Virus record (IMG/VR): IMGVR_UViG_3300028886_000035
Coordinates: 32,001 to 96,000 of that record
Source: a virus
Taxonomy: Duplodnaviria > Caudoviricetes
DNA length: 64,000 bases
Direction: 5' to 3' (one strand)
The position numbers and the translations under genes are program-made. Positions within the stretch are counted from its first letter, which is position 1. Every line of letters starts with the position of its first letter. The notes under the pieces are model-generated. The model was not told the DNA's origin and made no database searches. It was given only the letters and a program-made list of their open reading frames with translations. Positions 7,720-25,348 of the stretch are shown in pieces.

Positions 7720-8540
7720 TCTTTTTCCTCCATTGAACTAATTTTCCAATCAACCAAGGAATGTTTATGGCAATATTTACAAAAATTTATTCCTTCATCT
7801 TTATTATTTAATTCTATTATCTTATCTAAATTATTTATATTAAAAATATTAACATAATCTTTTCCATAGACCACTTTATATTTTTTATAAAAATAAACAT
7901 TGTACTTATCAATATTAGCAGGAATAATACAGGGGAAATAATCTCCGTTCCAATTTAATTGAGCACATGGAAATACATTATAAAATTCATAATTATTTTT
8001 ATCTTCATTTTGCTTAATTATGTCAATATCACAAGTATAATTATTACAACATTTGTATTTATTATTCCCATCAATATTTAAATTTGTTTTATAAAATTTT
8101 TTGCCAACATAATATTTTGAACACAAAATTTCAATATTATGACAAAAACAGTAGTCCTTAATTCTATCATTTAATAATATTCCATTTGTTACAATTTTCA
8201 AATTAATATTTGGAAAAATTCTTTTTGAAATGTCTAGTATTTCAAAAAGTTTGCTATGTAATAATGGTTCTCCACCCATTAAACTAATTCCATAAAATTT
8301 TTTATCTTTAATAATAAACTTAATCCTATTTAATAAATTTTCAAAAACCTGAACACCTATTTCTTTGTGTTTATAAACTAATGGGGCAAAATGGTCGCAG
8401 TAAGCACAATTTAAATTACAATCTTCAACAATAGATATATCTATTTTTCCTAATCCATTTTTTCGATATGATAATTCATCTATATATTTTTTTATTGTAT
8501 GCATATCTTTTTTTACTAATAAATCTATCATACCAATCAA
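7707..8540 (-). CDS. Radical SAM protein (polysaccharide-locus type)
   Basis: CNLNCAYCDHFAPL, MGGEPLLH, VTNG, C-terminal FCKYC. Confidence 0.85.
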   Translation of the reverse strand: MIGMIDLLVKKDMHTIKKYIDELSYRKNGLGKIDISIVEDCNLNCAYCDHFAPLVYKHKEIGVQVFENLLNRIKFIIKDKKFYGISLMGGEPLLHSKLFEILDISKRIFPNINLKIVTNGILLNDRIKDYCFCHNIEILCSKYYVGKKFYKTNLNIDGNNKYKCCNNYTCDIDIIKQNEDKNNYEFYNVFPCAQLNWNGDYFPCIIPANIDKYNVYFYKKYKVVYGKDYVNIFNINNLDKIIELNNKDEGINFCKYCHKHSLVDWKISSMEEKEWEI

Positions 8541-8541
8541 C

Positions 8542-9405
8542 TCACCCCATGATTAATTTAAGAATTAAGTCATCTTTTTTCATAAATAATTTATTTTCTA
8601 TTTCATTTTTTGTTATATTTAAATTTTGCTCTACATTATCATCAATATTAAATAACGAAAGATAATCAGTTAAACCATCATCTTGTGACTTATTTTTCGG
8701 AGAATAATGTACTTTTTTACCTAACCACAAAAATTCAAATATCATTTTCCCTATATTTTCAGAATATATTCCTTTTGTTATTTCTCTCCACCGTTGATAT
8801 TCTAATTTATTATACATCATATATTTAAATTTAATTTCATCTGTATCTTCAGTATTTCTTACGCTTTCATTAAATACCTGATTTATTACTGGAAATTTAT
8901 TTTTTATAAATTCTAACCTTTCATTTGAAAATTTATGATAATATAAATAATAATTATTCCTATAAAAATTCATATTAATTCGATTACCTAAAACAAAAAC
9001 ATTTTCCATCTGTTCAATATAATTATTTTTTATATTGTTATTTGTAATGTAATCATAAAACATTAAGCCTGAATCCAAAACAATTATTTTATTATAACAA
9101 AATTTCAAACAAGATAAATATTTTGTAATAGAAAATGAAACAATTAAAACATTAAATTTATTATTTTTATAAAATTTATCAATATTATTTATATCTATAA
9201 ATTCACAATTTACTTTATTAAGAGGTAAAGATTTATATATAGTTTTTATGTATAACATTTGTTCTTGTAGCTTCAAGCAATCAATAAAAATATAACATTT
9301 TAAATTAACTACACCATATTTTTTTAAATTGAAATATAAATCAAACAAAGATGTGGTTATTCCATTCATTTGTGGATAAAACAATATAATCCCAACATTA
9401 TCCAT
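8542..9405 (-). CDS. Putative divergent GT-B glycosyltransferase (EX7E family member 1)
   Basis: ENIGKMIFE = E-x7-E; paralog of 13998 and 41406; lies in the glycosyltransferase cluster. Confidence 0.45.
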   Translation of the reverse strand: MDNVGIILFYPQMNGITTSLFDLYFNLKKYGVVNLKCYIFIDCLKLQEQMLYIKTIYKSLPLNKVNCEFIDINNIDKFYKNNKFNVLIVSFSITKYLSCLKFCYNKIIVLDSGLMFYDYITNNNIKNNYIEQMENVFVLGNRINMNFYRNNYYLYYHKFSNERLEFIKNKFPVINQVFNESVRNTEDTDEIKFKYMMYNKLEYQRWREITKGIYSENIGKMIFEFLWLGKKVHYSPKNKSQDDGLTDYLSLFNIDDNVEQNLNITKNEIENKLFMKKDDLILKLIMG

Positions 9406-10388
9406 TATTCTATCATACCTTTTATAATATTCTTTAAATTGTTTTCATCTTTTATTTTTAATATAATATTTCCTTTTTTTGTGACATAATTGTTATTTTT
9501 GATTTTAAAAAATAAATCATTTAAACATTCATCATATAAATTATTTATTATTACTAAATAGTTATAATTATAATATTTTTGTATTGCTTTTAAAACATTA
9601 ATCTTCTTTTCTATATCAAAATCAATAAAATACGATATATCAAAATGTAATTGGTTTACATCAATTTTTAAATCGGTTAAAACAATAGCTTTTCCTTTAT
9701 ACAACTGATAAAACTCATTATATAACATTCTCATATATTGAATTTGTGGATAAACATTCATTATTCTCTTAATATTTTTTCTAATAAAAAATTTTGCTAT
9801 TGGATAATCACAAAATTTATAATTTTTTGTTTTTGAAACATATCTAAAAATAATTTCATCATCTGCCATACGTTTATATCTTAAATCCCACCCACCAAAT
9901 TTATCATAACAAATTCTTTTATGAGCAAAAGAACAAGTGTCAACTTGATTATTTTCAAATATATCAACTTTAGAACAATCTAATCCTTTTTCTTCTATTT
10001 TACCATTATCATATACAATTAAATATTTTGTTGTAATAACTTCTGTATTTTTATCAATATAATTTAATAATTTTTCACAACAATATTTATCAACCTGGTC
10101 ATCATCATCAGGATAAATTACCCATTCACCGGTTGAATGTTCAACACCATAATTTCTTGCATAACAATGTCCATGATTTTTATCAAACCTATATAAAAAT
10201 ACTCTATCATCATTTAATTTATCAATAAAATTTTTCTTTAATTTATATTGATTTTTTTCGGAACAATCATCTACAACAATTAGTTCTATATTTTTATATG
10301 TTTGATTTACAATTGCTTGCACAGATAGCTTGAAATATTCATACCTATTAAAAGTTGGCATTATAAAAGAAAATTTTATTCCATCCAT
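9405..10388 (-). CDS. Glycosyltransferase family 2
   Basis: FSFIMPTFNR, VVDDCS, ARNYG, PDDDD, MADDE. Confidence 0.9.
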   Translation of the reverse strand: MDGIKFSFIMPTFNRYEYFKLSVQAIVNQTYKNIELIVVDDCSEKNQYKLKKNFIDKLNDDRVFLYRFDKNHGHCYARNYGVEHSTGEWVIYPDDDDQVDKYCCEKLLNYIDKNTEVITTKYLIVYDNGKIEEKGLDCSKVDIFENNQVDTCSFAHKRICYDKFGGWDLRYKRMADDEIIFRYVSKTKNYKFCDYPIAKFFIRKNIKRIMNVYPQIQYMRMLYNEFYQLYKGKAIVLTDLKIDVNQLHFDISYFIDFDIEKKINVLKAIQKYYNYNYLVIINNLYDECLNDLFFKIKNNNYVTKKGNIILKIKDENNLKNIIKGMIE

Positions 10389-11140
10389 TCGTTCTTATCC
10401 TTTTTAGATTTTTCCCACTCTATATTTTCAATTGGTTTTCTACAATATTTACAAAAATCGTTCTTGTGAGTATAAAAATTACAGATTGTCTCATCTGTAA
10501 CTGAATCATCATATATATCTAATATGTCACCATCTTTTACTACAAAATTTTCATTAAAATAGTCATTAAATATATCTATATATGCTTGTATTGGGCATAA
10601 AAACAATTTCCCATCTTTTAGTTGTATACTTTCCCAATGTATCATACAACAATCAAATTCTGTTTGTTTTGCTTCATGTGTTAATATATGTTTTCTTAAA
10701 ATTTTTGTATATTGTTTTTTATTAAAATCTTTTGTTCTAATTCCTTCTATTTCTAACAATTTGAATATACCTTTATAATCAATGTTTACAGGATATTTAG
10801 TTATTTCAACTAAAATATCATATTTTTTTATATACGGTAATAACTCATGTAATCTTTGTAACAAAAGTAATCCATTAGTCAAAAAAGAAATATTTGTATT
10901 AGGGCTAATCTCTTTTATAGCATCAAAAAATAAACATATATTTTTATGTAATAATGGCTCCCCACCAAATATCCTAACATTATCCACATTAATTTTATTA
11001 GTTAATTGTTTAAAATCTTTTTTAAATTCTTCAACATTAGCAAACCATGATTTTGACAATGGGGCAAAATGAGCACACCCTTTACAATTTAAATTACAAT
11101 GGTTTGTAATATGATATTCTATCATTCTAAGATGTTTCAT
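10376..11140 (-). CDS. Radical SAM protein (polysaccharide-locus type), paralog of 7707
   Basis: CNLNCKGCAHFAPL, FGGEPLLH, LTNG, FCKYC. Confidence 0.85.
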   Translation of the reverse strand: MKHLRMIEYHITNHCNLNCKGCAHFAPLSKSWFANVEEFKKDFKQLTNKINVDNVRIFGGEPLLHKNICLFFDAIKEISPNTNISFLTNGLLLLQRLHELLPYIKKYDILVEITKYPVNIDYKGIFKLLEIEGIRTKDFNKKQYTKILRKHILTHEAKQTEFDCCMIHWESIQLKDGKLFLCPIQAYIDIFNDYFNENFVVKDGDILDIYDDSVTDETICNFYTHKNDFCKYCRKPIENIEWEKSKKDKNEWME

Positions 11141-11145
11141 AAAAT

Positions 11146-12387
11146 TTAGACTCCCTTATCTAATATTTTTTTTATTAACGATATTTTACTTAAATTCTGC
11201 CAAGTTGTATCGTCTGTTCTAAAAATATTAATTTTTACATTTTCAATATTTACAATTTTATCTAATGGAAAATACATCCATATATTTTTAACTAATTCTT
11301 TATCAGCAATTGAATTTGCATTTTTATTAATAGCATATGAATTTTTATAAACATATAAGCAACCTGGATTTAATACACAATCTTTAATTTTATTTAAAAT
11401 TATTTTGCTATCTTCTCCAACGATAAGCCAATCAAAAGCATTTTTTATATCAAATATACTAGTTCCAATAGTAAACTGTTTTGGATTTATATTTTTATTA
11501 TTAGTTGATATACAAACCTCATCAACTTTTTTTAATTGCTCCATTTTTAATTCATTCCATTTATAATTATTTTTTTTATAATCTTCTTTAGTAATAAGTT
11601 TTACGTTGTTTAATTTAATATTATCATTTTTTAATAACATATTAAATACTGTTTTACTCATATATGTAATATTTTCATTATCCATCGCCATTGGCAATCC
11701 TAATCTTGCTCCACAAAATTGACACCAATACATTTGTTTTTGATAACTAGTTTCTTTCCACCAATCTTTTTGAACTTTGAATCCTGTATTACCATCATAT
11801 AGCATGTCCATAGCTCCAGCCATTTCACAAAAAAAAGCACCATGATTATTAATTACTGCTCCACAATCATTATTTACCCAACAATTTTTACTTTGCTTAA
11901 TAAATTCTTCATCAGATATTCCAAGGTCTTTATAATAAACCATAGTTGTAAAATGATTAGTATAATTACTATGGTCATTACATCTTAAAGAATGAAATGT
12001 ATCATCAATATCTTCAAAATAATCATAAAACTGCTTTGGAACACTTGTAAATAATCTTAGTTTACCATTATTATCAGGCATAGTATTTAAAGCATAATCA
12101 TATATATCACTAATTGGATAACGAAAAAATCCATACTTTTTTTTGTATTTCGTTTGTAAATATTTCATTATTTCTTTAAAAAATGGATGTAATAATGGTT
12201 CTCCACCCATAATTGATATTTGCCCATTCCAATTATCCAATGAATCTATTGCATTTTTTACATCATGCAAATTCATAAAATATGGATTATTATTCAATTG
12301 ACAAAATCTCATACAATTAGCACATTTATTTACACATGAATTTGTAATATCTATCAAAATAGATTTTTTATCTTTAATTAATTTCAT
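11146..12387 (-). CDS. Radical SAM protein
   Basis: CVNKCANC, MGGEPLLHP, CW...FFCE...WCQFCG auxiliary cysteines. Confidence 0.85.
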   Translation of the reverse strand: MKLIKDKKSILIDITNSCVNKCANCMRFCQLNNNPYFMNLHDVKNAIDSLDNWNGQISIMGGEPLLHPFFKEIMKYLQTKYKKKYGFFRYPISDIYDYALNTMPDNNGKLRLFTSVPKQFYDYFEDIDDTFHSLRCNDHSNYTNHFTTMVYYKDLGISDEEFIKQSKNCWVNNDCGAVINNHGAFFCEMAGAMDMLYDGNTGFKVQKDWWKETSYQKQMYWCQFCGARLGLPMAMDNENITYMSKTVFNMLLKNDNIKLNNVKLITKEDYKKNNYKWNELKMEQLKKVDEVCISTNNKNINPKQFTIGTSIFDIKNAFDWLIVGEDSKIILNKIKDCVLNPGCLYVYKNSYAINKNANSIADKELVKNIWMYFPLDKIVNIENVKINIFRTDDTTWQNLSKISLIKKILDKGV

Positions 12388-12392
12388 TATAA

Positions 12393-13982
12393 TTATTCCT
12401 TATACGAAACTTTATTTTCAATAATTAACCCATCTAATTTTTCTTGATACATTCTATACATATCACTAAAATAATTAAAAATTGGTAATCCACTATCATT
12501 AAACGATGTATTAATTAAAATTGCAACTCCTGTTTTGTTGCCAAACGCATATAACAAATTATATAACCATTTATCATCTTTTTCACTAACTGTTTGTATA
12601 CGAATTGTTCCATCTTTATGTATAGCACCTAACAAATTATCAATTTTAGGTTTAGCTAAAATATTCATATATGGAACTTGAATATTAATGTCAAAATATT
12701 CACTTATTTTATCATCAGGTACAATAATTCCGTATGGTCTATACCATTCTCTACCTTTAATGGTATTTAATCTATCATGCATTTCTTTATGAAATGGAGA
12801 AGCCAATATACTACGTCTACCTAACGCCCTAGCTCCCATTTCTATGTTACCACGACAAACGCCAACAATTTTATCATCATTTAATTTATCAACAAGCTCA
12901 TCTATATCGAATGTTTTAAATTTATTTTGTTTTCTCTCAAAAATTTCTTTTTCTTCCATATTATTCGTACAAGAATAATTATTTGATGAAATATATTTCA
13001 ATTCATCAGGTTTATAATGCAATAAATAATTTAAAACTGCACCGTATGACTGTCCTGTATCTGCAACTATAGGAGTATAATATACATGGTTAAACCAATT
13101 GGTTTTTTCAATCATATAATTTAGCATACAATTCATAGCGCAACCGCCCGAAAATACTAAATTATCACTTTCATGACGATATTGAGCCAATTCTCTCATT
13201 ATCCAATCAATCCATAATTTTTGCATTGTATATGCTAAATCATACTTATCAAATTCTTTACTTTGTTCATCCAAAAAATTATAAATATATGTTTCAATCG
13301 CTTCTTTATCTTCCCATATATTCCAATTTACATCTTTTATTGCTTTTTCAAAATCATCAATATTTTTAATCTGAACAAAATTATTAGATAAACCTGCATA
13401 AGCCATAAATTTTCCTTCTAAACCTTGTTCGTACTTATGACGCTTATCTAAAAAATAACAAGAAAGAACTTCATAATACATACCATAAGAAAATTTCTGT
13501 TCTTGATATAATTTTGTTAATTTATTATTTTGCCAATGATAGAAAGCATGATTTCCATCACCTTTACCATCTATAGATAAGCAAAGTGCGTCCTTTAAAT
13601 TATTTTCAATTATAGCAGGTAACACATGGTTTTCTTGATGATGGAATTTAATTACATCACAACGTTCCAACATTTTAACAAAATCATATGATTCTTTTTT
13701 CAAATACCCATCTTTAAATGTTTTATAATTCCAACAAACTACATCAAAATGGTCTACACCAAATTGTTCTTTGATAATTTTTTGACATTTATATAAATTA
13801 TTACGAAGTTTATCGTTATAAATTCTATCTATTTCAGGCATATAATCAATTATATCTGAATGAAAAGAAAAATGCTTCTTTTTTAAGAATTTTTCTAATT
13901 CAATATATTTTAATTCTTTTGTATCTGTATTATAATATGTAACATTATAGTCTTGATAACATTGTATTCCTAGAATTTTCAT
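12393..13982 (-). CDS. Carbamoyltransferase (NodU/CmcH/TobZ family)
   Basis: HHQENH, IDGKG, SGGCAMN, EMGARALGRRSIL, KGREWYRP, HKDGTIRIQTV, INTSFN. Confidence 0.92.
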   Translation of the reverse strand: MKILGIQCYQDYNVTYYNTDTKELKYIELEKFLKKKHFSFHSDIIDYMPEIDRIYNDKLRNNLYKCQKIIKEQFGVDHFDVVCWNYKTFKDGYLKKESYDFVKMLERCDVIKFHHQENHVLPAIIENNLKDALCLSIDGKGDGNHAFYHWQNNKLTKLYQEQKFSYGMYYEVLSCYFLDKRHKYEQGLEGKFMAYAGLSNNFVQIKNIDDFEKAIKDVNWNIWEDKEAIETYIYNFLDEQSKEFDKYDLAYTMQKLWIDWIMRELAQYRHESDNLVFSGGCAMNCMLNYMIEKTNWFNHVYYTPIVADTGQSYGAVLNYLLHYKPDELKYISSNNYSCTNNMEEKEIFERKQNKFKTFDIDELVDKLNDDKIVGVCRGNIEMGARALGRRSILASPFHKEMHDRLNTIKGREWYRPYGIIVPDDKISEYFDINIQVPYMNILAKPKIDNLLGAIHKDGTIRIQTVSEKDDKWLYNLLYAFGNKTGVAILINTSFNDSGLPIFNYFSDMYRMYQEKLDGLIIENKVSYKE

Positions 13983-13997
13983 ATATCCAACTTCTTT

Positions 13998-14909
13998 CTA
14001 AAACAATGATAAAAATTCATCATTTGATTGCATAAATAATTTTTCTTCAAAATATTGTTTTTCTTTGTTTGTAAAAATATATGTATTATTATCATCTAAA
14101 TCCAAATAATTCATATATTCACTTAAACCATCATAAAACTTTTTGTTTTTTGGTAAATACTGTGATTCTTTCCCCAATAAAATAAATTCAAACATTAATT
14201 TACCAATATTTTCGTAATATCTCGCACCATCATCTGTGTATAAATTATCATTATTTTTTTTATCATATCTATAATATAAATATTTTTTATAATCAAACGG
14301 TTTAATATTATTACCATTTATTTTATTTTTATAATAATCTTCTGCAATTAAAATATCATTTTTTGTTGTAGATAACTTCTTTAATTTTTCTATTCGTTCT
14401 TTAGAAAATTTCATATACCAAATAAAATTATCTTCCACAAATTTAGAATTATATTGATTGCAAACTGTCAAAACTTTGTGTTCCTTTATATAATTTATTT
14501 CATCATTGTATATTGTTAAATCTTTTTGTTGTTTTTTATATATAAATGCAGGATATAATAAAATCTCTTGTTTTGCAGATTGTTTAAAACGATTATTTTT
14601 TTGCAATTTGATTATTTCTGAACTTATGATATTTATATCACCTTTTATATTATAAGTCATTTTTTTATGTTTAATGATACTTGTATTTCCATACGTATCC
14701 ATGTATTTTCCAACCCATAAAGGCAAATAACAAATACCATCACCAAATGCTAAATATTCCCTAAATCGTCTTAACAAATTTTTATCTTCGTATAAAATAA
14801 TAAATCTTACATCATGATTTGTAAACTTTCTTAAATTATAAAATGTATCTTCAAATGATGTATAAGCTCCATTTAATTCATAAAACAAATAAATTAAGTT
14901 AATTTTCAT
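13998..14909 (-). CDS. Putative divergent GT-B glycosyltransferase (EX7E family member 2)
   Basis: ENIGKLMFE; NGAYTS, KFSKER and DGLSEY shared with 8542 and 41406. Confidence 0.45.
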   Translation of the reverse strand: MKINLIYLFYELNGAYTSFEDTFYNLRKFTNHDVRFIILYEDKNLLRRFREYLAFGDGICYLPLWVGKYMDTYGNTSIIKHKKMTYNIKGDINIISSEIIKLQKNNRFKQSAKQEILLYPAFIYKKQQKDLTIYNDEINYIKEHKVLTVCNQYNSKFVEDNFIWYMKFSKERIEKLKKLSTTKNDILIAEDYYKNKINGNNIKPFDYKKYLYYRYDKKNNDNLYTDDGARYYENIGKLMFEFILLGKESQYLPKNKKFYDGLSEYMNYLDLDDNNTYIFTNKEKQYFEEKLFMQSNDEFLSLF

Positions 14910-16044
14910 CGTCTACACTCTCAATACATTCATTGATTTTTTTCATAATATTATTTATATCATATTTTTTTGCTTCGTCTAAACAATTTTGTCTCATATT
15001 AGATTTGCCAATCTTCATAATTTTATCCATATTTTCATCAAAATTATTATCGATTAACCATCCATTATATCCATCTTTAATAAGGTAATTCATTACTTTA
15101 CATTCTTTAAACCCAACTATGGGTACACCATACGATAATGCTTCTATAATAACTGTCGGCAATCCTTCATATTTTGATGGAACAACCAAAACATCTGCAT
15201 TTTTGTAAAATGCACTTACATTTTCTTGATAACCGTAATAATGTATATTTGGATAATTATATTTATCCATATCTATATATCCAAAACCTTTATAACTATA
15301 TCCGACTACATCACATTCATAATCTGTATTTTTAACCCAATCTAACAATATATGTGTTCTTTTTGTATCACTATTAATACGCCCAACATATAATATTTTA
15401 TTTCTATTAGATTTAATATCAATATTATTCGGGATATCTATGCAATTATAAAAGACAACCGACTTTTCTTTATATTTTTCACTTATATATTGCGGTAATA
15501 AAAAAGCCAATATATCACAATTTTTTAATACTAATTCATATAAACTTTTTTCATCTTTTAAAATTTCTTGTTTACGAATATAATCCATAGCACGAATATG
15601 AGTAATAGTATCCATCATAAACTGCGGTTCATTATGAAAAAACATAATAATTGGTATTTTAGAAACTTTTGATATAATTGTCCAAAATAATGCATCTTGT
15701 CCACAACTAGCATTACAAAATATACATTTAGGTTTTATATTTCTAATTTTAACTACATAATCATTAATTAGTCCACGAGATAAATATGTATTTATATTTG
15801 TATGTATTGTAACATTATCAATATCAACACATTTTTCTCCTGAAATAAATAAATGGACATTATATTTTTTGCTCAATTCATTGCAAATTTTTAATGTATA
15901 TCTTTCTGCTCCCCACAAATAATTATGTGTTTCTCTTTTACCCATACTATTTGTAACGACTACTGTATTATTGTCACCTATATATGTATCAAATTTATTT
16001 CCTATCATAAATTGCAATAGAAACATATCATTTTTTGTATTCAC
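14899..16044 (-). CDS. Glycosyltransferase family 4 (GT-B)
   Basis: WGAER, LYVGRI, PSKYEGLPTVIIEALSYGVP, IKDGYNG. Confidence 0.9.
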   Translation of the reverse strand: MNTKNDMFLLQFMIGNKFDTYIGDNNTVVVTNSMGKRETHNYLWGAERYTLKICNELSKKYNVHLFISGEKCVDIDNVTIHTNINTYLSRGLINDYVVKIRNIKPKCIFCNASCGQDALFWTIISKVSKIPIIMFFHNEPQFMMDTITHIRAMDYIRKQEILKDEKSLYELVLKNCDILAFLLPQYISEKYKEKSVVFYNCIDIPNNIDIKSNRNKILYVGRINSDTKRTHILLDWVKNTDYECDVVGYSYKGFGYIDMDKYNYPNIHYYGYQENVSAFYKNADVLVVPSKYEGLPTVIIEALSYGVPIVGFKECKVMNYLIKDGYNGWLIDNNFDENMDKIMKIGKSNMRQNCLDEAKKYDINNIMKKINECIESVDDEN

Positions 16045-16867
16045 GGCAAGCCATCCTCAAAAGTTTAGTTTCGTATTCTTTATTTATTCTATCTTCTGCA
16101 TACATCTTCCAAATTTCACCAAATAAAGAACTTTTCTTCCACGGTTTAGGATTACTAGCAAAATGTAAAATTCGTATATTATCAGATTTTATTTTTTCAC
16201 CATAAATACGAATTAATTCATTAAACCTATATTTGCTATATGTATTAGCTAAAAAATTATATCCATAACTAATATATTTTATTTTCCCTAAAAATGCTTT
16301 ATTTAAAACATCTTGCTCCCATAAAAAACCTTTATTTTCTTTTAGTTCTTTATTCAATTCGTCATAATAAACATACATTGTTTTATCTTTATCTATTATA
16401 CTTTCTCTAATCTTTTTTAAATTAAAATACACATTACCTGCATTAAAATATGAAAATCCATTTATTTTGTCTCTTACTGCTCCACAAAAATAATCTGATA
16501 TATTGATATTAAATATATCAGATATATCTTTTATAACAATAGTATCTGAATCAATATGAAATACTGTATCACAATCTAATAAATTATGTAACAATAATTT
16601 GTAATATACAACACCTGCATTATCATCTGATACAAAAATATTTTTATCTATATAAATTGGTATTATATGAAAATCATCACTATCTAAACTTTTAATATCC
16701 TGTATATCTTTAAATTCTATACATAATAAATAAACATCGTAACAAATGTCACGATGTTTATTGAATTTCAATGATTTCATTGAAATATATGTTTGAAATA
16801 GATAAGATTGATTTGTCATATAAACTATATTAAAACAGTTTTCCTGACAACTCATAATAAGCCTCAC
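16028..16867 (-). CDS. Glycosyltransferase family 8
   Basis: HIDSDTIV, YFNAG, EQDVLN, LHFASNPKPW. Confidence 0.88.
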   Translation of the reverse strand: MRLIMSCQENCFNIVYMTNQSYLFQTYISMKSLKFNKHRDICYDVYLLCIEFKDIQDIKSLDSDDFHIIPIYIDKNIFVSDDNAGVVYYKLLLHNLLDCDTVFHIDSDTIVIKDISDIFNINISDYFCGAVRDKINGFSYFNAGNVYFNLKKIRESIIDKDKTMYVYYDELNKELKENKGFLWEQDVLNKAFLGKIKYISYGYNFLANTYSKYRFNELIRIYGEKIKSDNIRILHFASNPKPWKKSSLFGEIWKMYAEDRINKEYETKLLRMACREYKK

Positions 16868-17465
16868 TAATTTCTTGTTTTGTCTTTGCAGCTTTAATCT
16901 TTTCTTTATATTCTTTATATTTCATATAAACTGCATCAATAGCATTAAAATCATCAAGAGAATCAAGATATTCTGAAAGTTTTTCTAGTGTTTCTGTATC
17001 GCCACTATTAATTACTTCCAAATATTTTTCTTCCCTATTTTCATCTGTAATAAAGAAACCTTTAGCTTCAAGATAATGGTTTAATTTAAAGAAATGATAT
17101 AATTCAAAATTAGAAATCATTAATTGATTACTAATTAATTCATTAATCATTCTTAATGTTTTTTCTTTATAAGCATCTAAAACATCTTCGTCTGTTTCTT
17201 CTTGTAATTGTTCTACCTTAATTAAATCAGATACATCATATACTTTACTAGCATCTATTTCTCCATCAATATAAATAAGCATACGTGGTTCACGATGTTC
17301 CAAATCTAATTCTTGAACAACATAAGTATATGCTTCTGGTGTTAACCAAACATATTCTTTATTACTTAGCAAAACTTGTTCCATATCTAATTTCTGAAAT
17401 GGTTCAATTAAAAAATTTTTACCATCTTGTTCAAGAGTTTTACAAAAAAAATTCATTGTCGCCAT
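16830..17465 (-). CDS. Hypothetical protein coupled to the Cys-rich/rSAM module
   Basis: 211 aa, helical C-terminus FFITDENREEKYLEVI; overlaps both neighbours. Confidence 0.65.
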   Translation of the reverse strand: MATMNFFCKTLEQDGKNFLIEPFQKLDMEQVLLSNKEYVWLTPEAYTYVVQELDLEHREPRMLIYIDGEIDASKVYDVSDLIKVEQLQEETDEDVLDAYKEKTLRMINELISNQLMISNFELYHFFKLNHYLEAKGFFITDENREEKYLEVINSGDTETLEKLSEYLDSLDDFNAIDAVYMKYKEYKEKIKAAKTKQEISEAYYELSGKLF

Positions 17466-17731
17466 TATTCTGTCTCCTTATTAATTTCTTCAATAATACT
17501 ATCAATATTTTTTTCTTCTTTTTCTTCTTTTAATTGTACGTTTTCATCATAGTCTAATCCATATTTTCTTCCCATACTTATCATAGACATAGATATAATA
17601 CTATTAATAGCTTGATATGCAACCTTATCTAACGGATAAATCATTTGACGAGCCATTTCTAAAAAATTTCGTTCCGTCAACATAAATTCCAAAATTTTCT
17701 GTTTTTCTTCTTTTGTTTGTTCTTTTATCAA
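17465..17731 (-). CDS. Small hypothetical protein
   Basis: 88 aa, TTG start after AGGA. Confidence 0.55.
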   Translation of the reverse strand: MIKEQTKEEKQKILEFMLTERNFLEMARQMIYPLDKVAYQAINSIISMSMISMGRKYGLDYDENVQLKEEKEEKNIDSIIEEINKETE

Positions 17732-17752
17732 AATACTATATCCTTTCTTATA

Positions 17753-19138
17753 TTATACAATATATTGATATGAATAGCACCAACCACGAACTTTAACAAC
17801 ATAACAAGCACAGGAAGCTTCATGTCCAAAACAAGAGCAATAATTACAATTGCAAACACATAAACTAGAAATTAAATTGATAGCTTTCATAAAATATGTT
17901 GCTACATTCGTACCTGCAATATTTAATGTATATTCACCTCTTGTAATTCCTAAAGGATTCATACAAAATCTTGCTACTGTAATATTTGATTCTTGTGAAA
18001 AATTCCTTGTTTCTATCTGTTTTATTGGATTACCATTAACATCTTTCATAATGTTACCGTTTTTATCTTTAACCACGGTTTCTCTTGTACCAATACAATT
18101 TTGAACAAACATTGGGTCAATATCACCTGCTTCAGATATTCCACCTAATAAAGCAGTTCTCCATCTGTACACATAAGTATATAGGTCTGAAGGTATATAT
18201 CCAAATACATCAAATGCAGGTTTTCTAATGCCATCATCATAAGTTACATACTTAACATAATCTATATTGCCATATGGTCTGCGTTTAGGTTGATATATAA
18301 CACCCCCACCTAAATTATATATTGGTTGCGTTGAATATCCATAAATATCACTTGTTAGTAGATTGTCTGGTTCATGTGCAGAAACAACAGTATTGCCTTC
18401 AATATTGTTTATTTCATCTTGCTGTATTCCTGAATGTCGATATACATATTCTCTCATATCTGAACCTGTAAACCAGTTATTCCCTTTATGTGAACCAACA
18501 TTTATTTCAGAAGCATTAGGATTATAATCTAATTGAGCGAAATCAGGTTCATTCTTTGCAGATGTATTAACGGTAGTTGAAGAACCACCACTACTATAAG
18601 TTATAATACTGTCACTTTTATCTACTGACAATGGGAACGTTTGTATAGGCAATCTATCATTAACAGAACTTGATGCTTTAGCTGGTAACTCAATTTTAAA
18701 TAATGTCAATATATCAGAAAAAATTTTTTCTATATCACTTTGGCGTATTTTGTCACCACTAGCCATATATCCACTATGCCCATTTTGGGAATCCAATTGA
18801 GCACTCATTGGTTGCAAAGTTCCTGGTCCATTCATAAAATTATTTCTTAACATAAATTCTTGGCGAATTTTAATTAGCAAAGCATTCCATTCATCATTTG
18901 TAATTGGATTATCATCAAAATTTTCTCTCAATCTAGTTGAACGCCTTTGATAGCTATGATTTGCTAAATATGATTGTGAACTACTATCGAATGTTGACCA
19001 CAAACTAGTGGAAAATTCATAGTCTTTATCACCACCTGGTGTACCATATGGTTTGCATATAGGAAATTTTCCTGTTGGGTCAGGAACATATTGATAAAAT
19101 CCGTCGCCTTTAAATCTATTTGCTATTTGTACTGACAT
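17753..19138 (-). CDS. Large protein with Cys-rich C-terminus (CVCNCNYCSC...SCAC...WC); candidate rSAM/SPASM substrate, possibly a virion fibre
   Basis: 8 Cys in the last ~35 residues; G/S/N-rich body; directly downstream of two SPASM rSAMs. Confidence 0.6.
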   Translation of the reverse strand: MSVQIANRFKGDGFYQYVPDPTGKFPICKPYGTPGGDKDYEFSTSLWSTFDSSSQSYLANHSYQRRSTRLRENFDDNPITNDEWNALLIKIRQEFMLRNNFMNGPGTLQPMSAQLDSQNGHSGYMASGDKIRQSDIEKIFSDILTLFKIELPAKASSSVNDRLPIQTFPLSVDKSDSIITYSSGGSSTTVNTSAKNEPDFAQLDYNPNASEINVGSHKGNNWFTGSDMREYVYRHSGIQQDEINNIEGNTVVSAHEPDNLLTSDIYGYSTQPIYNLGGGVIYQPKRRPYGNIDYVKYVTYDDGIRKPAFDVFGYIPSDLYTYVYRWRTALLGGISEAGDIDPMFVQNCIGTRETVVKDKNGNIMKDVNGNPIKQIETRNFSQESNITVARFCMNPLGITRGEYTLNIAGTNVATYFMKAINLISSLCVCNCNYCSCFGHEASCACYVVKVRGWCYSYQYIV

Positions 19139-19198
19139 ATCTATATCAACTCCATTATATATTTATTTTCAAAAAATTGATTATCTATTTAATAAATA

Positions 19199-20275
19199 TT
19201 AATGAGTCAATTTATAATATGCTTTAATATAATCAGAGATTTTATTATATAATTTACAAACATCTTCTTTATTTGAATTATTCCATTGTTCTTTTTTACC
19301 ATTGCTATTTAAAGCATTACATCTAAAACAAAATATAGATTCACAATTAGAACATTTTTCATTTTTTTTAAACATATTGTTTGCAACTAAATAATTACAA
19401 TCTACCTTATGCAAAAAATTATCTTCAAAAATATTCGTATATACTAAATCTTGTTTCCCATACAAACAACCGTGACAATAAGATACATCACCATTCAAAT
19501 CTATTTGAAATGAATTATATCCACCTGAACAATCCGCATTACTATTTGGCTGGTCAAACCATAAAAATCCTGTTTGACCAAACTCTTTATTTTTCAAGAA
19601 ATAACGGATTAATTTAATAAACTGATTATTCATTTTATTATAATCCACATTGCCTACATTTAATGTATCTGGTGTTAACGCAAATGGAATTTTTTTCTTT
19701 AATTCTTTATTTAATTTCTCAAAATTCAAATATTGTTCAAATAAATGTTCTTCTAAATCATTAATTGTACACGTAGATTTTGTGCCAACATAAAAATCAT
19801 TTTCATCAAACCATTTTATTGCTTCTCGTACCATTTTATCTGTTTCTTCCGCACTATGATTTAATTGTATACGTTGATTATTTTCTATATTATGATAATC
19901 ATATGATACTTGAATCTGTAATCTTCTTCCTACGTGTTCTTTTATTTCTAATAAATCATTTTTATATGCTTGCACTAACGAACCATTTGTATACATGAAA
20001 AAGCTAACATCTTTATTATCATAAAATTCTGATATTATTTTTTTAATTTTATCAAAATAAACTGTTGGTTCTCCACCCCAAAATTCAATTCTTAGTTCAT
20101 TAACTTCTGCTAATTCATGTAATACTTCTATAATTCTGTCAAAAACATTTTGTGGAATACTTTCGTTTTTTTCAACTGCTCCATTTTTAACCTCAAAGCA
20201 ATATTTACAACGGAAATTACAACCGCTCCCCATATTAATAGAAACTGACATAGGTGTTTTCATAATTATTATCAT
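19199..20275 (-). CDS. Radical SAM/SPASM-domain protein
   Basis: CNFRCKYC, FWGGEP, YTNG; CSGG...YCHGC...CSNCESIFCFRC. Confidence 0.88.
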   Translation of the reverse strand: MIIIMKTPMSVSINMGSGCNFRCKYCFEVKNGAVEKNESIPQNVFDRIIEVLHELAEVNELRIEFWGGEPTVYFDKIKKIISEFYDNKDVSFFMYTNGSLVQAYKNDLLEIKEHVGRRLQIQVSYDYHNIENNQRIQLNHSAEETDKMVREAIKWFDENDFYVGTKSTCTINDLEEHLFEQYLNFEKLNKELKKKIPFALTPDTLNVGNVDYNKMNNQFIKLIRYFLKNKEFGQTGFLWFDQPNSNADCSGGYNSFQIDLNGDVSYCHGCLYGKQDLVYTNIFEDNFLHKVDCNYLVANNMFKKNEKCSNCESIFCFRCNALNSNGKKEQWNNSNKEDVCKLYNKISDYIKAYYKLTH

Positions 20276-21315
20276 TCCTTATTTAATATATTAATATTAT
20301 ATTTATTTTTCATATATTGATATAATTTTGTAACCATATGAAAACATATTTTCAAAACTTCACAATATCCATCTATAATACCATTATTCTGTATTTGTGA
20401 ATATAAACACCCTTGATTACAAAAATTATTCAAAATACATTTATTACATTTATCATTATATGTATTATTAATAGATTTTATATATGATATATTATCTTCA
20501 AAATATGTATCGTTATTACTGTCATACAATGGATATTGATGATTTGTATAAAATCTTGAACAAGGATAAATTATACCTTCAGGAGTTATACTAAATCCAC
20601 TACTACCTGCAAAACATATAAAATTTCTTTTTCCATTTAACAAATTTTGTAATATCTTTTCAACAAATCCTATATAAATCCATCTATTATAATTGTCATA
20701 ATTCATTACCATAAAATCATATAAATTGTTTACCTGATTTTTTAATTCATTTAAACTATTTTTGTCCCATATATTATCCTTGACAAAAGATACATCTATA
20801 TAAAAATTATCTATATCATTCTTCATAGCTAATTTATAAAAATAAACGATGTTTTTCATCATATTATAAACATTATGATTATCTATCATCATTTTTGGTT
20901 GCATTTCTACAATTTTATTTTTGTATAATTGTTCTATATATTTATGATTATTGTCATTACAACCATCACAACTAATTCCTATATGAATATTTCTTGTGTC
21001 AAATTCATTTTTAATTTTATCATTCAATAATATACCATTCGTTTGCATAAAACTATGCACTACATTTAAATTAGTTTTTAAGTACTCGTCAAATAATAAA
21101 ATATTTTCATATTCTAATAAAGGTTCTCCACCAAAATATGTTACATCATATTCTCCGTCAAAACTATCATCTATTTTTTTAGATAAATATTGTATATTTT
21201 TGATTTGTTTTTTTAATACATCAAATGTTAATTTTTTTGAATTTTGATTTATATAACAATACTCACATTTTAAATTACAAGCATTCGTCATATGAATTTG
21301 TATAACATGCTTCAT
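20272..21315 (-). CDS. Radical SAM/SPASM-domain protein
   Basis: CNLKCEYC, FGGEP, QTNG; CFAG...YPC...CNKCILNNFCNQGC. Confidence 0.9.
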   Translation of the reverse strand: MKHVIQIHMTNACNLKCEYCYINQNSKKLTFDVLKKQIKNIQYLSKKIDDSFDGEYDVTYFGGEPLLEYENILLFDEYLKTNLNVVHSFMQTNGILLNDKIKNEFDTRNIHIGISCDGCNDNNHKYIEQLYKNKIVEMQPKMMIDNHNVYNMMKNIVYFYKLAMKNDIDNFYIDVSFVKDNIWDKNSLNELKNQVNNLYDFMVMNYDNYNRWIYIGFVEKILQNLLNGKRNFICFAGSSGFSITPEGIIYPCSRFYTNHQYPLYDSNNDTYFEDNISYIKSINNTYNDKCNKCILNNFCNQGCLYSQIQNNGIIDGYCEVLKICFHMVTKLYQYMKNKYNINILNKE

Positions 21316-21327
21316 TTTTCTCTCCTA

Positions 21328-21362
21328 AAAAAAGAAGTATATGTATATTATACTTCTTTTTT
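21328..21362 (-). terminator. Rho-independent terminator
   Basis: AAAGAAGTATA-7nt-TATACTTCTTT. Confidence 0.7.
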
Positions 21363-21365
21363 TAC

Positions 21366-24098
21366 TTATTCTCCTTTTTCATTAATTACCATATCGTTCA
21401 TATACGTATTCCTATTTTTTATATTCAATGGATATTGATAAGAATATTTTGCCATATAACCATACCTATTATCATTTGGTATACCACTAATACTTGTTAT
21501 ATTTTTCATTTCATGATAAATGTTATCATATCCACCATAATATAATTTATTAAAATCACTTATTGAAAATACATACATATCTCTTTCTATTGTATCATAC
21601 AAATATGATTTACTTAATAATACACTAAATGATGTTAGTTGTTGTTGTGCATAACTATAAATATCATTAAAATGTATATCTGTTTCAATAATTTCTTGAC
21701 CTATTTGTTTCTTTAAAATAATATTTATAGTCGTTTTTATCAATTTACCTTTTAACCAATTTAAAATTACATATGTATTTTCGTCCATTTCATAAATTCT
21801 TGCTCTACACAAATCTTTATATACAAAATGCTCTCTTGTATCATCATTCCCATAAAAATCTTGTGGCTTTGCAGAATATAAGTTAATTCCACCATAATAT
21901 ATATTGCAATTTCTAAAAATTGCATAATCATCAATGTTTTTTGTTTTAAATGGTTTTGATACTTTGATAAAATATTTATTATTTAGACTTTCATATCCTA
22001 TCTGTGGTATTAAATTCAATCCATCGTCTATATAATGATAATTCAAATTAATATTGTCTATATCTATATCATATCTAGGATTTCCTTCAGAAATATTATC
22101 ATCATATATTAGAAAATCTTCTCTACAAGTTACATCTATATTCGCATTAAATTTAATATTTACATTCGTTGTTTTATTTTGAAATTTAACAATTACAGGA
22201 ATAGTAATTTTATAGAAAAACATTTGAGCAGAAAATTTTAAATTATAGTCAGTATAACCCATATCTTTATAATAATAATCTTTCGTCTTATACGAAGATG
22301 TAGTATTATTATACTTTAATTCATATTCTACTCCATCTTTTGTTATCGTAGGTAAATTTTGTATATAAGACATTAATTTTGATTTTAATTCTCCATATAT
22401 ATTCGTTATCATATCATTACAATTAATTACAGTCAATTCATAATTCTCTATAATTACTTTTTGAAAAATATTTCTACCATCAAAATTAATAAATTTAATT
22501 AGTAAATTATCTTTTTTATCAAAACAACAAATATCATGCTCTTTTACATAATTTATTGTATTTTGCGTTAATCTCACATTAAAATCATATTTTTCATAAT
22601 TAATTCCATCATATTGAATAATGTGTACACCAAATTCATCAAAATTAACAAAGAAAAAATATTTATCATTATATGTAATATAATCACAATCAAAATATTT
22701 TTCTTGACTTTCTGTAATTGGTAATTTTACTTTTTTAGGTACTGTAATCGTAGATGATGCTAAACTTGTTCCTACAGGAATAAAATTTAAATCATAATTT
22801 TTCTTATTTAAAGTAAAATATCCATCTAATGCATTTTCGTCTACTGTATTATCTACATAAGTAGAATCAAATTCAATATTAATTTTGTTTTTACTATATT
22901 TAACAATCTTATTACCTGTTTTACTTGTACTTAAAGCAAGTGAATTATCATGTTGTGGTGTAATCACAAAAGAAGTAAAAATATCATCACCACAAGATAA
23001 TAATATATTAAAAGAACAGGTATCTTTATGGATTATTTTTCTATCTTTATCTATAACTTTTGTTATAATACCTTTTCCTGTAAATTCAAATTTGTTTGGG
23101 TCTTTATTTGTTGCATGTTTTTTATATTTCTTCCTTAAATATTGAGTGGAAAATTTTTCTGCGTGAAACAAATAGTCACCAATCTTAATCTCAACAAATC
23201 CATTATACTTTTCTCTTTTATCAATTACCATTTCAAATACTTTACCATCATATTCAGGATTTACAATGTCTTTAGATGTATCATCAATAGTATTGTTAAT
23301 AACCCCAACAATTCCACCATAAATACCATATTCTTTATCTGTATCTTCATGCAAGTATGAAATTGTATTCAAAGAAAGAGAATTTGGATAGATTAACGTG
23401 GATAATATAATAGGTTTCGTGATTCCATTTGTTGTAATAATAACTGCTTTATATAAAACTGTCCTTGTTTCTTTTAATGTGGTATCAAATGAAAAATGTG
23501 TATAATAATATTGATGGTCTTTTATTTCCATTTGACCTAGATAACTCCATTTTATATCTCTAGTATCATAATGATTATTATAATCAGATTCTTCTGATAT
23601 ACGACTATGTTCATCTATTTCAGTTAATGGAGCTATATGATTATATAGTAAAACCTTATCTATTTGATATTCTGTTTCTAAATTCAATATTATATCTAAA
23701 TAAGAATAGTTTTCATGTAATCCATAAGTAGAAAAACTTCTTATTTTTATTTTATCTTCTACATTTGAATATACAATTTTAAAATAAAAATCATTCTTAA
23801 ATATTTTTCCACCTTCAAGAATTAATTCTACTGCATAATTGTAATTACCAAAACCTAACCAATTATCATCTTTAATTTCATATTTTGTACTTGAACGTTG
23901 ATTAATTTTATAATCGTTATATACTTCTCCGTTTTTATAAATAATGATATGATTAATTGGTGATTCCAAATGATTTACAGCAAAATTAAAAGCAAAATTA
24001 TATATATATTCTCTTGCAAAAAACACATCTTTAGTATCTTCTAATATATGTTCATATTTATTATCTGCAAATGAAAATACTATATCACGATTTATCAT
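21366..24098 (-). CDS. Large hypothetical protein (910 aa, beta-rich, Y/N/I/K-biased)
   Basis: Long intact ORF with GGTG RBS; no recognised motif. Confidence 0.7.
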   Translation of the reverse strand: MINRDIVFSFADNKYEHILEDTKDVFFAREYIYNFAFNFAVNHLESPINHIIIYKNGEVYNDYKINQRSSTKYEIKDDNWLGFGNYNYAVELILEGGKIFKNDFYFKIVYSNVEDKIKIRSFSTYGLHENYSYLDIILNLETEYQIDKVLLYNHIAPLTEIDEHSRISEESDYNNHYDTRDIKWSYLGQMEIKDHQYYYTHFSFDTTLKETRTVLYKAVIITTNGITKPIILSTLIYPNSLSLNTISYLHEDTDKEYGIYGGIVGVINNTIDDTSKDIVNPEYDGKVFEMVIDKREKYNGFVEIKIGDYLFHAEKFSTQYLRKKYKKHATNKDPNKFEFTGKGIITKVIDKDRKIIHKDTCSFNILLSCGDDIFTSFVITPQHDNSLALSTSKTGNKIVKYSKNKINIEFDSTYVDNTVDENALDGYFTLNKKNYDLNFIPVGTSLASSTITVPKKVKLPITESQEKYFDCDYITYNDKYFFFVNFDEFGVHIIQYDGINYEKYDFNVRLTQNTINYVKEHDICCFDKKDNLLIKFINFDGRNIFQKVIIENYELTVINCNDMITNIYGELKSKLMSYIQNLPTITKDGVEYELKYNNTTSSYKTKDYYYKDMGYTDYNLKFSAQMFFYKITIPVIVKFQNKTTNVNIKFNANIDVTCREDFLIYDDNISEGNPRYDIDIDNINLNYHYIDDGLNLIPQIGYESLNNKYFIKVSKPFKTKNIDDYAIFRNCNIYYGGINLYSAKPQDFYGNDDTREHFVYKDLCRARIYEMDENTYVILNWLKGKLIKTTINIILKKQIGQEIIETDIHFNDIYSYAQQQLTSFSVLLSKSYLYDTIERDMYVFSISDFNKLYYGGYDNIYHEMKNITSISGIPNDNRYGYMAKYSYQYPLNIKNRNTYMNDMVINEKGE

Positions 24099-24108
24099 TT
24101 CATCACCA

Positions 24109-24402
24109 TCATTCTGCTAAAAATAAATTTCCTGTTTTTATAGCCTTTGGTATTAAATCTCTTAATCCTTCCATACAATCTATCGCCAAATCATAATCTT
24201 TAAAATGCATCCTATCATTTTTTGATTTTTCCTCTGAATGATATTCGTTAATGATAAAATATTTTAAATCTTCAGGATTTAAATTTAATGTCATAGCTAA
24301 AGTTTTATTTGTATTAAATTGTATTTCCACTCCACCTACAAGACGATATGCAACTACATAGTATCCATATTCATCTTCTTCTACTTTAAAGTCTATAAGC
24401 AT
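24109..24402 (-). CDS. Hypothetical protein
   Basis: Probable start MLIDFK at 24402 after AGGAGG. Confidence 0.7.
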   Translation of the reverse strand: MLIDFKVEEDEYGYYVVAYRLVGGVEIQFNTNKTLAMTLNLNPEDLKYFIINEYHSEEKSKNDRMHFKDYDLAIDCMEGLRDLIPKAIKTGNLFLAE

Positions 24403-24532
24403 AATTATTCCTCCTTCTAAAAACATATACAAATGTGTACAAAAGTGTATTTTACGCACGTTTGAACACACTTGCGTATGCTTTTGGATGCTTAACGATT
24501 AGTCCTATGTAATATATCTCTAATTAATAAAT

Positions 24533-24564
24533 AAAAGGACGTACAATTTAATATACGTCCTTTT
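24533..24564 (-). terminator. Rho-independent terminator
   Basis: AAAAGGACGTA-10nt-TACGTCCTTTT. Confidence 0.75.
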
Positions 24565-24567
24565 AAC

Positions 24568-24801
24568 TTAATTTATATGTAATAACAACCATCGAAACAC
24601 AAAATCATCATTCAACAGATTTATTTGTTTATCTTGTAATTGAAATTGTCCATTAATCATTTTATTACAATAACAATTCCAAACCGGACCAGACATCATT
24701 ACTGATAAACGTGTATCTCCTTTATCAAAATAATGACCTAATGGGTCTTTAAAATATCTATATCCTAATTTTTTCATATGACCTATAATTTTTCCTGTCA
24801 T
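24568..24801 (-). CDS. Small hypothetical protein
   Basis: 77 aa, GGTG RBS. Confidence 0.6.
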   Translation of the reverse strand: MTGKIIGHMKKLGYRYFKDPLGHYFDKGDTRLSVMMSGPVWNCYCNKMINGQFQLQDKQINLLNDDFVFRWLLLHIN

Positions 24802-24805
24802 ATCA

Positions 24806-25348
24806 TCACCACAAATCTAATTCATCTGTGATTAACATTTTAATAAATGGAGTAATCATTTTTTTAGGGAACATAATATCTGTCTGCTTACGAATTTTTG
24901 CAGTAGCAGAATTATGTGAATCTCCATTCATACGACAACTATCATAAAAATCACATAAATGTAACATAATCGCATATAGATGAATATTATTTACATCCAG
25001 TCCGCTAGGATAACCGCTACCATCTAAATTTTCCATATGTTGTGATACAATATCTGCAATTCTATCATAATCGCCTAAATTACAAATAACTGCTTTTGAA
25101 AATAATGGATATACATTATCTAAAGAAACTATATCTTTCCCAATTTTAATTTCTTTATCAAAATTACATTTGCCAACTTCATGTAAAAATCCTGCAATAT
25201 ATAATGTTTCTCTATCCACACTATCTATATCAAACTTTTTTCCAAATTCATAGCACATCATAGCTACACGTTCAGAATGTTTATAGATTTCAGGATATTT
25301 TTGTTCCATTATATCTAAAAGTTTATTTACTTTTTCCATTCGCTTCAA
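24806..25348 (-). CDS. HD-GYP domain protein (degenerate cyclic-dinucleotide phosphodiesterase)
   Basis: HSERVA, LHEVGK (HD changed to HE), QHMENLDGSGYP, CDFYD. Confidence 0.8.
   Translation of the reverse strand: MKRMEKVNKLLDIMEQKYPEIYKHSERVAMMCYEFGKKFDIDSVDRETLYIAGFLHEVGKCNFDKEIKIGKDIVSLDNVYPLFSKAVICNLGDYDRIADIVSQHMENLDGSGYPSGLDVNNIHLYAIMLHLCDFYDSCRMNGDSHNSATAKIRKQTDIMFPKKMITPFIKMLITDELDLW

Follow-up and report, generated by a model that had tools for sequence, protein, structure and literature searches.

A phage module joining two radical-SAM/SPASM enzymes to a cysteine-tailed protein, their candidate substrate

On what do two adjacent radical S-adenosylmethionine (rSAM) enzymes of a large rumen bacteriophage act? 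The question is raised by positions 16830–21315 of a 64,000-nucleotide stretch of DNA, here called the window, which comprises bases 32001–96000 of the IMG/VR record IMGVR_UViG_3300028886_000035 (281,186 bp, judged 98% complete). A reading of the letters alone, referred to below as the original prediction, had placed here two overlapping SPASM-type rSAM genes followed by a 461-residue protein with a cysteine-rich end, and had supposed that such enzymes cross-link the tips of fibre-like proteins. The coordinates and features of this module were all borne out. The enzymes rSAM1 (347 residues; 20272..21315, minus strand) and rSAM2 (358 residues; 19199..20275, minus strand) are encoded with a 4-nt overlap, carry CxxxCxxC and GGEP motifs together with the complete set of SPASM cysteines, and match SPASM maturase models over their full length. 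A gap of 60 nt separates rSAM2 from the gene of the 461-residue protein (17753..19138, minus strand), the probable substrate, and genes for proteins of 88 residues (17465..17731, minus strand) and 211 residues (16830..17465, minus strand) follow. On balance we believe, with restrained confidence, that the 461-residue protein belongs, without the Peptidase_S74 (S74) domain of some of its relatives, to a class of phage proteins with cysteine heptads, and that its tail is modified by both enzymes, most likely through thioethers.

The 461-residue open reading frame (ORF) ends exactly as had been quoted. Eight cysteines lie within its last 35 residues (427–461; codons 17756..17860, minus strand), arranged as one CxCNCNYC unit, a CX3E, a CxC and a GWCYxYxY end. 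At the genome's cysteine frequency of 1.74%, at least eight cysteines in 28 residues are expected about 1.5e-3 times per whole proteome. The protein belongs to a small and wholly unannotated family: a word-indexed search gave eight matches, a profile search of 1.8 billion representatives gave 10 clusters, and a scan of viral contigs added four loci. There is no match to the 461-residue protein in Pfam, NCBIfam or PHROG, and tblastn and blastn searches of a phage database with this protein, with the 910-residue protein encoded upstream of the rSAM pair or with the locus itself found nothing. Long forms of 426–525 residues and short forms of 255–256 residues can be distinguished; common to all members are an N-terminal FPIC(K/R)PYG, a central helix (the DEWNALL... 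segment), RPYGN, a pre-tail helix and the tail. The helical segment DEWNALLIKIRQEF, to which attention had been drawn, is indeed a confident helix (residues 81–98) in the AlphaFold2 (AF2) model. The description of the protein as rich in Gly, Ser and Asn stands in direction and overstates the degree: these residues make up 25% against 19% genome-wide, a modest enrichment that reaches 30% in the variable middle. This middle is absent from the short forms and unstructured in the model.

Conservation is concentrated in the tail, where mean identity is about 78% as against about 29% in the body (for pairs with body identity below 50%). In 16 sequences, 17 positions of the tail do not vary: C427, C429, N430, C431, N432, C434, C436, G438, E440, C443, C445, V448, G452, W453, C454, Y455 and Y457. 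All eight cysteines are thus invariant among the 16 relatives, and the sole CX3E of the tail, C436–E440, is likewise unchanged, while His439 within it varies (H/N/D). Some members carry extra residues C-terminal to the tail. One chimeric ORF of 86 residues, P0014, joins about 45 residues resembling an IS200/IS605-type transposase to a final 33 that are the tail of a P0011-type protein; either an insertion within the tail codons or an assembly error could account for it.

A variable body followed by an invariant C-terminal core resembles the leader and core of a ribosomally synthesised and post-translationally modified peptide (RiPP), and the enzymes resemble ranthipeptide/SCIFF maturases. The protein might accordingly be a giant RiPP precursor, the body acting as leader and the tail of about 35 residues being freed as a bioactive peptide directed against competitors or the host. 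We regard this as the least probable of the readings weighed here: no protease or exporter is encoded in the conserved block, motifs within the body are conserved and its helical core is confidently modelled, some members continue beyond the tail, and relatives described below are fused to a fibre chaperone domain and lie among virion-type genes.

Both enzymes are recognised by the Pfam Radical_SAM model (E 9.5e-12 for rSAM1 and 7e-12 for rSAM2), and rSAM1 exceeds the cut-off of the SPASM domain model TIGR04085 (39.7 bits against 27). Orthologues of rSAM1 are 56–78% identical, with C13, C17, C20 and seven SPASM cysteines invariant; those of rSAM2 are 57–83% identical, with C19, C23, C26 and C249, C267, C270, C308, C311, C316, C319 and C340 invariant. 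In both enzymes the CxxxCxxC motif is thus accompanied by SPASM cysteines for two auxiliary clusters, as in PapB-family maturases. In the same genomes the body of the tail protein is far less conserved than the two enzymes, which are 56–83% identical. The best curated family for both is PapB (NF047865), with 121.5 bits for rSAM1 and 69.3 for rSAM2, below the cut-off of 340. For rSAM1 the next families, matched over the full length, are SCIFF maturases of the CteB type (TIGR03974; 69.9 bits, cut-off 425), QhpD (TIGR03906; a weak 67.9 bits, cut-off 453) and anaerobic sulfatase maturases (anSME; TIGR03942; 66.5 bits, cut-off 349). The best PDB match of both enzymes is the SCIFF maturase CteB, 5WGG. 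Because the alignments begin only at residue 99 of CteB, we conclude that rSAM1 and rSAM2 have no N-terminal RiPP recognition element (RRE). The CrpC-type family TIGR04463 is absent among the best 25 of 52 families for rSAM1 and the best 25 of 42 for rSAM2.

The window contains another rSAM module, the substrate gene of which lies at 32787–33692, and the present module had been taken to be independent of it. Our comparisons agree: the two module-2 rSAMs are 42% identical to each other and match rSAM1 and rSAM2 weakly. They also match TIGR04463 weakly, at 33–39 bits against a cut-off of 525. Outside the window, the same genome encodes a third cysteine-dense protein (C1:275772-276446, minus strand; 224 residues, eight cysteines in 35 residues), the CQxCQ pattern of which resembles the module-2 substrate.

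In the relatives the order rSAM1, rSAM2, tail protein, a protein of about 85 residues, a protein of about 211 residues, and glycosyltransferases (GTs) of families GT8 and GT4 is kept in all eight informative contexts. Four relatives have an N6/N4 DNA methyltransferase gene inserted within an otherwise intact set (L002:8122-8859, L009:4095-5297, L010:4098-5300 and L005:1186-2388), either within the rSAM pair or just after it, ahead of the tail protein.

This setting bears on a further explanation, in which the rSAM pair serves the sugar or nucleotide pathway of the downstream GT cluster or makes formylglycine as anSMEs do, the cysteine protein being a chance neighbour or carrying electrons for the many rSAM enzymes of the phage. 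In favour of this, translational coupling joins the module to a cluster of GT, carbamoyltransferase and rSAM genes, the genome carries many rSAM genes, and anSME is among the weaker full-length matches. Against this, the sugar-linked rSAMs downstream are of a different, non-SPASM kind, whereas the present types, which we call A (rSAM1) and B (rSAM2), always flank the cysteine protein. A sulfatase is missing from the scanned neighbour genes and a [CS]x[PA]xR target motif from the 461-residue protein, and the cysteine spacing of the tail is unlike that of ferredoxin motifs. An affinity of the enzymes with anSMEs had been set down as a finding that would undo the original prediction; the higher score of rSAM1 against PapB and the missing target motif speak otherwise, and we hold this explanation to be highly doubtful.

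A wider connection between the enzymes and the cysteine tail comes from five distant cassettes: L014, L015 and L016, then L017 and L018, the last two holding S74-fused members. In L014–L016, the gene directly upstream of a homologue of the 211-residue protein encodes a protein of 164–198 residues with C-terminal CxCxC(N/D)Y-type units, an N-terminal cysteine motif and a central helix, and rSAM genes lie directly upstream of it; L017 and L018 are arranged in the same way. A hidden Markov model of the 211-residue family finds a homologue directly after the cysteine-repeat gene in all five (E 8e-10 to 9e-26). BLAST with rSAM1 identifies a full-length orthologue in L014, L015, L017 and L018 (E 1e-22 to 2e-37, 92–96% coverage), and BLAST with rSAM2 identifies a different one in each of the same four cassettes (E 8e-27 to 6e-35, 92–98% coverage). 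The similarity to these orthologues far exceeds that between rSAM1 and rSAM2 themselves and that of either to the module-2 enzymes of its own genome. The co-occurrence of both rSAM types, a cysteine-repeat protein and a 211-like protein substantiates the proposal that the phage strategy is a recurring one.

The cysteine-repeat proteins of L014–L016 point in turn towards tail fibres. A search with these three found 125 relatives. Among the 120 listed, one or more heptad units occur in 108, and in 87 the final repeat runs straight into SDxxLK. Pfam scans of three members place the start of Peptidase_S74 exactly at the serine of this motif. Sixty-one of the 87 SDxxLK-bearing relatives end no more than 16 residues past it. 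In L014 (L014:7229-8017), the cysteine-repeat protein stops 12 residues after SDKQLK and the remainder of Peptidase_S74 (profile positions 16–55) is a separate 91-residue ORF starting 15 nt later, so that the S74 domain is split. S74 acts as an intramolecular chaperone for trimeric tail fibres and spikes and cleaves itself off. Its self-cleavage would therefore leave the cysteine repeats as the mature C-terminus, which is the native state of the 461-residue protein. Virion, baseplate and tail-fibre PHROGs are among the matches of neighbouring genes in the distant cassettes.

How does the window protein stand to this class? An hhalign comparison of its family with 20 repeat-class members gave 95.4% probability (E 1.8e-8, 59 columns), the aligned region consisting of the pre-tail helix and the cysteine region. 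Common to both sides are orthologues of rSAM types A and B, a 211-like gene directly downstream, a pre-repeat helix leading into a CVC(N/D)CNY unit, and additional rSAM and sugar genes further on. The tail of the 461-residue protein has a single canonical heptad unit (CVCNCNY) followed by a different cysteine pattern, the invariant extension FG.E..C.C...GWCY.Y.Y, which sets its family apart from the heptad/S74 class. The window family also has a much larger body and an N-terminus of the FPICKPYG rather than the MAC..H..C type, and, unlike the heptad/S74 class, occurs in animal-gut relatives of Bacillus phage G. Neither a Peptidase_S74 domain nor an SDxRLK stub is present in any of the 16 members of the window family. 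By analogy with the S74-fused relatives, the mature product is probably a component of the virion, in the tail or a fibre.

Several observations weigh against so reading the window protein. With one heptad and neither S74 nor an SDxRLK stub, its link to fibres comes at second hand, and cysteine-rich composition may inflate the hhalign score. The AF2 model (mean pLDDT 58.5) has a helix-rich body of no recognised fold, and nothing in it is fibre-like; the tail, at a pLDDT below 30, is unmodelled. Foldseek with this model returned nothing from the PDB at E <= 0.001, VIA-align gave helical bundles (best Z 6.4), and a search of the ESM Atlas reached TM values of 0.29 or less, no fold being assigned to what is a mediocre model. 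The description of the protein as fibre-like thus draws on its relatives, whose cysteine repeats run into Peptidase_S74 and whose neighbours are of virion type, and is not upheld by the model of the protein itself. On the enzyme side, the scores lie far below every curated family cut-off, so the type of reaction cannot be read from homology. A predicted complex of rSAM1, rSAM2 and tail residues 396–461 scored 0.00, a value that is informative neither way, controls not having been run. The contigs from RNA libraries described below can prove neither transcription nor its level. Finally, dense CxC units with conserved aromatic residues would suit a metal–thiolate domain too.

This last point introduces the main rival among the alternatives, according to which the tail is a metal-binding module whose CxC units ligate Zn, Fe or an Fe–S cluster, the rSAMs acting elsewhere or aiding the insertion of metal or cluster. 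Eight invariant cysteines closely spaced as CxC, with conserved aromatic and hydrophobic residues between them, are what a small folded metal domain would be expected to show. Moreover, the relatives are linked to trimer-forming S74 chaperones. In a trimer, such metal sites could line the axis, comparable to the HxH motifs that bind iron in the tip of the T4 long tail fibre. Simple metal binding leaves unexplained why two dedicated SPASM maturase types are co-inherited with the cysteine protein across very distant phages, and His439 is not conserved. SPASM enzymes of this clade, furthermore, modify cysteine-rich peptides and proteins (PMC13692751). We consider a metal tail unlikely, if deserving of more weight than the two explanations discussed above.

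We return to modification of the tail by both enzymes, which is the simplest reading because two old SPASM lineages are co-inherited with a cysteine-rich C-terminus across very different phages and because the C-terminus is the only near-absolutely constrained part in the window family. The relation of enzyme to substrate, like the chemistry and the virion role, we infer from gene content, motifs, conservation, synteny and homology links that are themselves directly observed. The 461-residue protein would be an enlarged, S74-less member of a widespread phage class with a CxCxC(N/D)Y-type C-terminus. Two ancient and distinct RRE-less enzymes, of types A and B, would both bind its tail and cross-link it by 5'-deoxyadenosyl radical chemistry. 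The links made are most likely Cys-to-carbon thioethers, ranthionines or sactionines, and would possibly begin at the invariant CX3E. The best full-length matches, PapB, SCIFF/CteB and QhpD, are thioether maturases. The remaining cysteine, asparagine and aromatic positions could serve a second type of link, made by the second enzyme. The product would be a covalently stapled C-terminal knot resistant to proteases and to redox conditions. With no RRE in either enzyme, the substrate may be recognised through its tail and the helix before it, through its body, or through the 88- and 211-residue proteins. The 211-residue protein, and perhaps the 88-residue protein, would be dedicated partners in folding, presentation or assembly of the tail protein.

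Radical-SAM thioether stapling is familiar from small natural-product peptides. PapB and CteB are the best sequence matches for both enzymes, over the full length of the rSAM core and SPASM domain, and the CX3(D/E) rule of PapB fits the invariant CX3E of the tail. The PapB substrate differs in being a short leader–core peptide with CX3(D/E) motifs, where the present one is a protein of 255–525 residues with one CX3E; here two non-paralogous enzymes without an RRE would share one substrate. QhpD is a SPASM rSAM enzyme that forms Cys-to-Asp/Glu thioethers in QhpC, the gamma-subunit of quinohemoprotein amine dehydrogenase. That system is alike in that the modified protein stays in a larger assembly and does not become a free natural product; it differs in that the phage locus has no dehydrogenase context and shows no evidence for a quinone cofactor. 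To our knowledge, QhpC was the only protein-sized substrate before the 2026 work on CrpC and CrpA. In Methanococcus voltae, the SPASM enzyme CrpC installs ranthionine thioethers in the C-terminal cysteine-repeat region of the cysteine-rich protein CrpA, the N-terminal parts of which aid engagement (PMC13692751, 2026). SPASM enzymes can thus act on a protein-sized cysteine-repeat substrate, and there, as here, the SPASM gene stands beside one for a cysteine-rich protein and not a short peptide. CrpC itself has an RRE and belongs to TIGR04463, whereas the phage enzymes are two, RRE-less and of other lineages. The CrpA motif is C-x-x-Q/D in 17-residue repeats, as against one CxCNCNYC unit with its unique extension, and the host is a cellular archaeon, not a phage.

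What, then, are the parts of the 88- and 211-residue proteins? The 88-residue protein has no family match; its orthologues, of 79–95 residues, occupy the same position in all contexts. Set against a small helical ORF in L014 and against the extra N-terminal segment of the L015 rSAM, its profile gave probabilities below 1%, and no likeness to an RRE or to PqqD could be demonstrated by these comparisons. The 211-residue protein has about 100 homologues, its orthologues being 45–82% identical. It matches phrog_25260 (E 1.3e-7), and its AF2 model (pLDDT 88) consists of a small N-terminal beta domain and a helical bundle. Structural comparison of this model returned helical proteins of a generic kind (Z <= 9.8 over 70 residues) and, in BFVD, weak matches only. 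A weak likeness to DUF4376 was seen with language-model features (0.92) and Foldseek, and DUF4376 has been named as a fibre chaperone (PMC10579305, PMC7882524). Outright identity with DUF4376 (PF14301) was considered and rejected, the Pfam model being silent in seven orthologues (E up to 5) and in all six frames of the whole genome (E up to 10). Like the genes of tail-fibre chaperones of the DUF4376/TfaMu type, the gene for the 211-residue protein directly follows a putative fibre-type gene, and this position together with the weak likeness suggests that the protein is a candidate assembly chaperone. Of the other kind of fibre chaperone, the intramolecular Peptidase_S74 domain, no example occurs within the window.

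In the cultured Campylobacter phage CP220 (L012/L013, NC_027997.1 11829-17450), a 211-like protein, gp015, follows tail assembly and baseplate hub genes; no cysteine-repeat gene adjoins it, gp014 being an ordinary baseplate hub. After gp015 in CP220 come a QueE-like rSAM, a UDP-glucose dehydrogenase and a SPASM rSAM, gp023, which is 24% identical to rSAM1.

Literature searches found no paper linking rSAM enzymes with phage cysteine-repeat or fibre proteins; one cyanophage paper merely lists a 'radical SAM maturase' as an antibiotic gene. Three features are new: the enzymes represent two orthologous types, each conserved in its own right; a 211-like gene is a constant neighbour in every cassette examined; and a variant without S74, with one heptad unit and a large body, is present in G-like jumbo phages from animal guts. 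More broadly, T4-like, giant and G-like jumbo phages may use RiPP-type radical-SAM stapling of a fibre-type cysteine-rich tip as a step of virion maturation, possibly combined with glycosylation by the products of the coupled sugar genes, the separate 211-residue partner having taken the place of S74 in the window family. This wider idea we put forward tentatively, as possible rather than probable. If phages do staple their own structural proteins, this would be a new kind of virion maturation. In guts and sediments it would be a new way for adhesin tips to withstand proteolysis and reducing conditions, and the many 'orphan' rSAM genes of large phages would have an explanation. With this cassette a defined enzyme–substrate pair can be put to the test: an invariant core of about 35 residues and two enzymes that, lacking an RRE, could help peptide stapling.

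As to its wider setting, the window has a G+C content of about 25% and nearly every gene on the minus strand. Its portal protein (54182-55924, minus strand) shares 67.5% identity with the portal of Bacillus phage G, and on the ground of this likeness we place the rumen phage with the G-like jumbo phages; neither the 461-residue protein nor rSAM1 finds a match in phage G. Near-identical DNA is present in bovine and pig gut metagenomes from 12 studies, and the anoxic gut is a habitat that suits oxygen-sensitive radical-SAM enzymes.

The conserved block is headed by an ORF of 120 residues (24109..24471, minus strand) without a family match, followed by the gene of the 910-residue protein (21366..24098, minus strand), which lies directly upstream of the rSAM pair. 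In L002, L003, L007 and L008 the first has orthologues of 97 residues, located 5' of a gene for about 900 residues, and the second has orthologues of 898–911 residues in the same place; the 910-residue protein is without a match in Pfam, PHROG or the phage database. Between it and rSAM1 the sequence reads as an AT-rich hairpin followed by a T run (21327..21363, minus strand), a possible attenuator or terminator that a consensus terminator scan did not call.

At the other end, the gene ends confirm the proposed run of two coupled ORFs into a glycosyltransferase cluster: the 88- and 211-residue genes abut or overlap, and the latter overlaps the GT8 gene by 38 nt. The cluster (5929..16867, minus strand), defined by Pfam and NCBIfam matches, runs in the order GT8, GT4, a 303-residue protein, carbamoyltransferase, two rSAMs, GT2, a 287-residue protein, rSAM and CitC-like/SGNH, and follows the module in the same order in L002, L003, L007, L008 and L009. 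The impression that no evident terminator intervenes is supported by the scan, which gave three sites against 1.4 +/- 1.5 expected, none of them convincing; one, at 16729-16762, falls within the GT8 ORF.

Contigs assembled from four bovine-gut RNA libraries (runs X6, X8, X17 and X18) cover window positions 12000–25000 and bridge the rSAM2, 461-, 88- and 211-residue genes without error. Contigs over about 16.8–20.2 kb and 24.2–25.0 kb have 5–10 times the per-contig depth of their neighbours, a measure that cannot rank genes and was not used as evidence. A promoter motif in common with the tail genes was sought genome-wide and not confirmed. Among upstream motifs, enrichment is confined to early sigma-70-like TTGACAAA promoters, which precede 39 genes, for example 5' of window 29716-31449, and often have a conserved ATAACCATAGAGATAA start region after the -10 box. 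Neither TTGACAAA nor ATAACCATAGAGATAA occurs in the 5.9–24.5 kb block, and the sequence 5' of the 461-residue gene is unique in the genome. Elsewhere in the window, genes at 43248-44546 and 48499-49569 (minus strand) encode UDP-glucose dehydrogenase-like and aminotransferase-like proteins; UDP-glucose dehydrogenase genes also lie directly 5' of the rSAMs in the distant cassettes L017 and L018.

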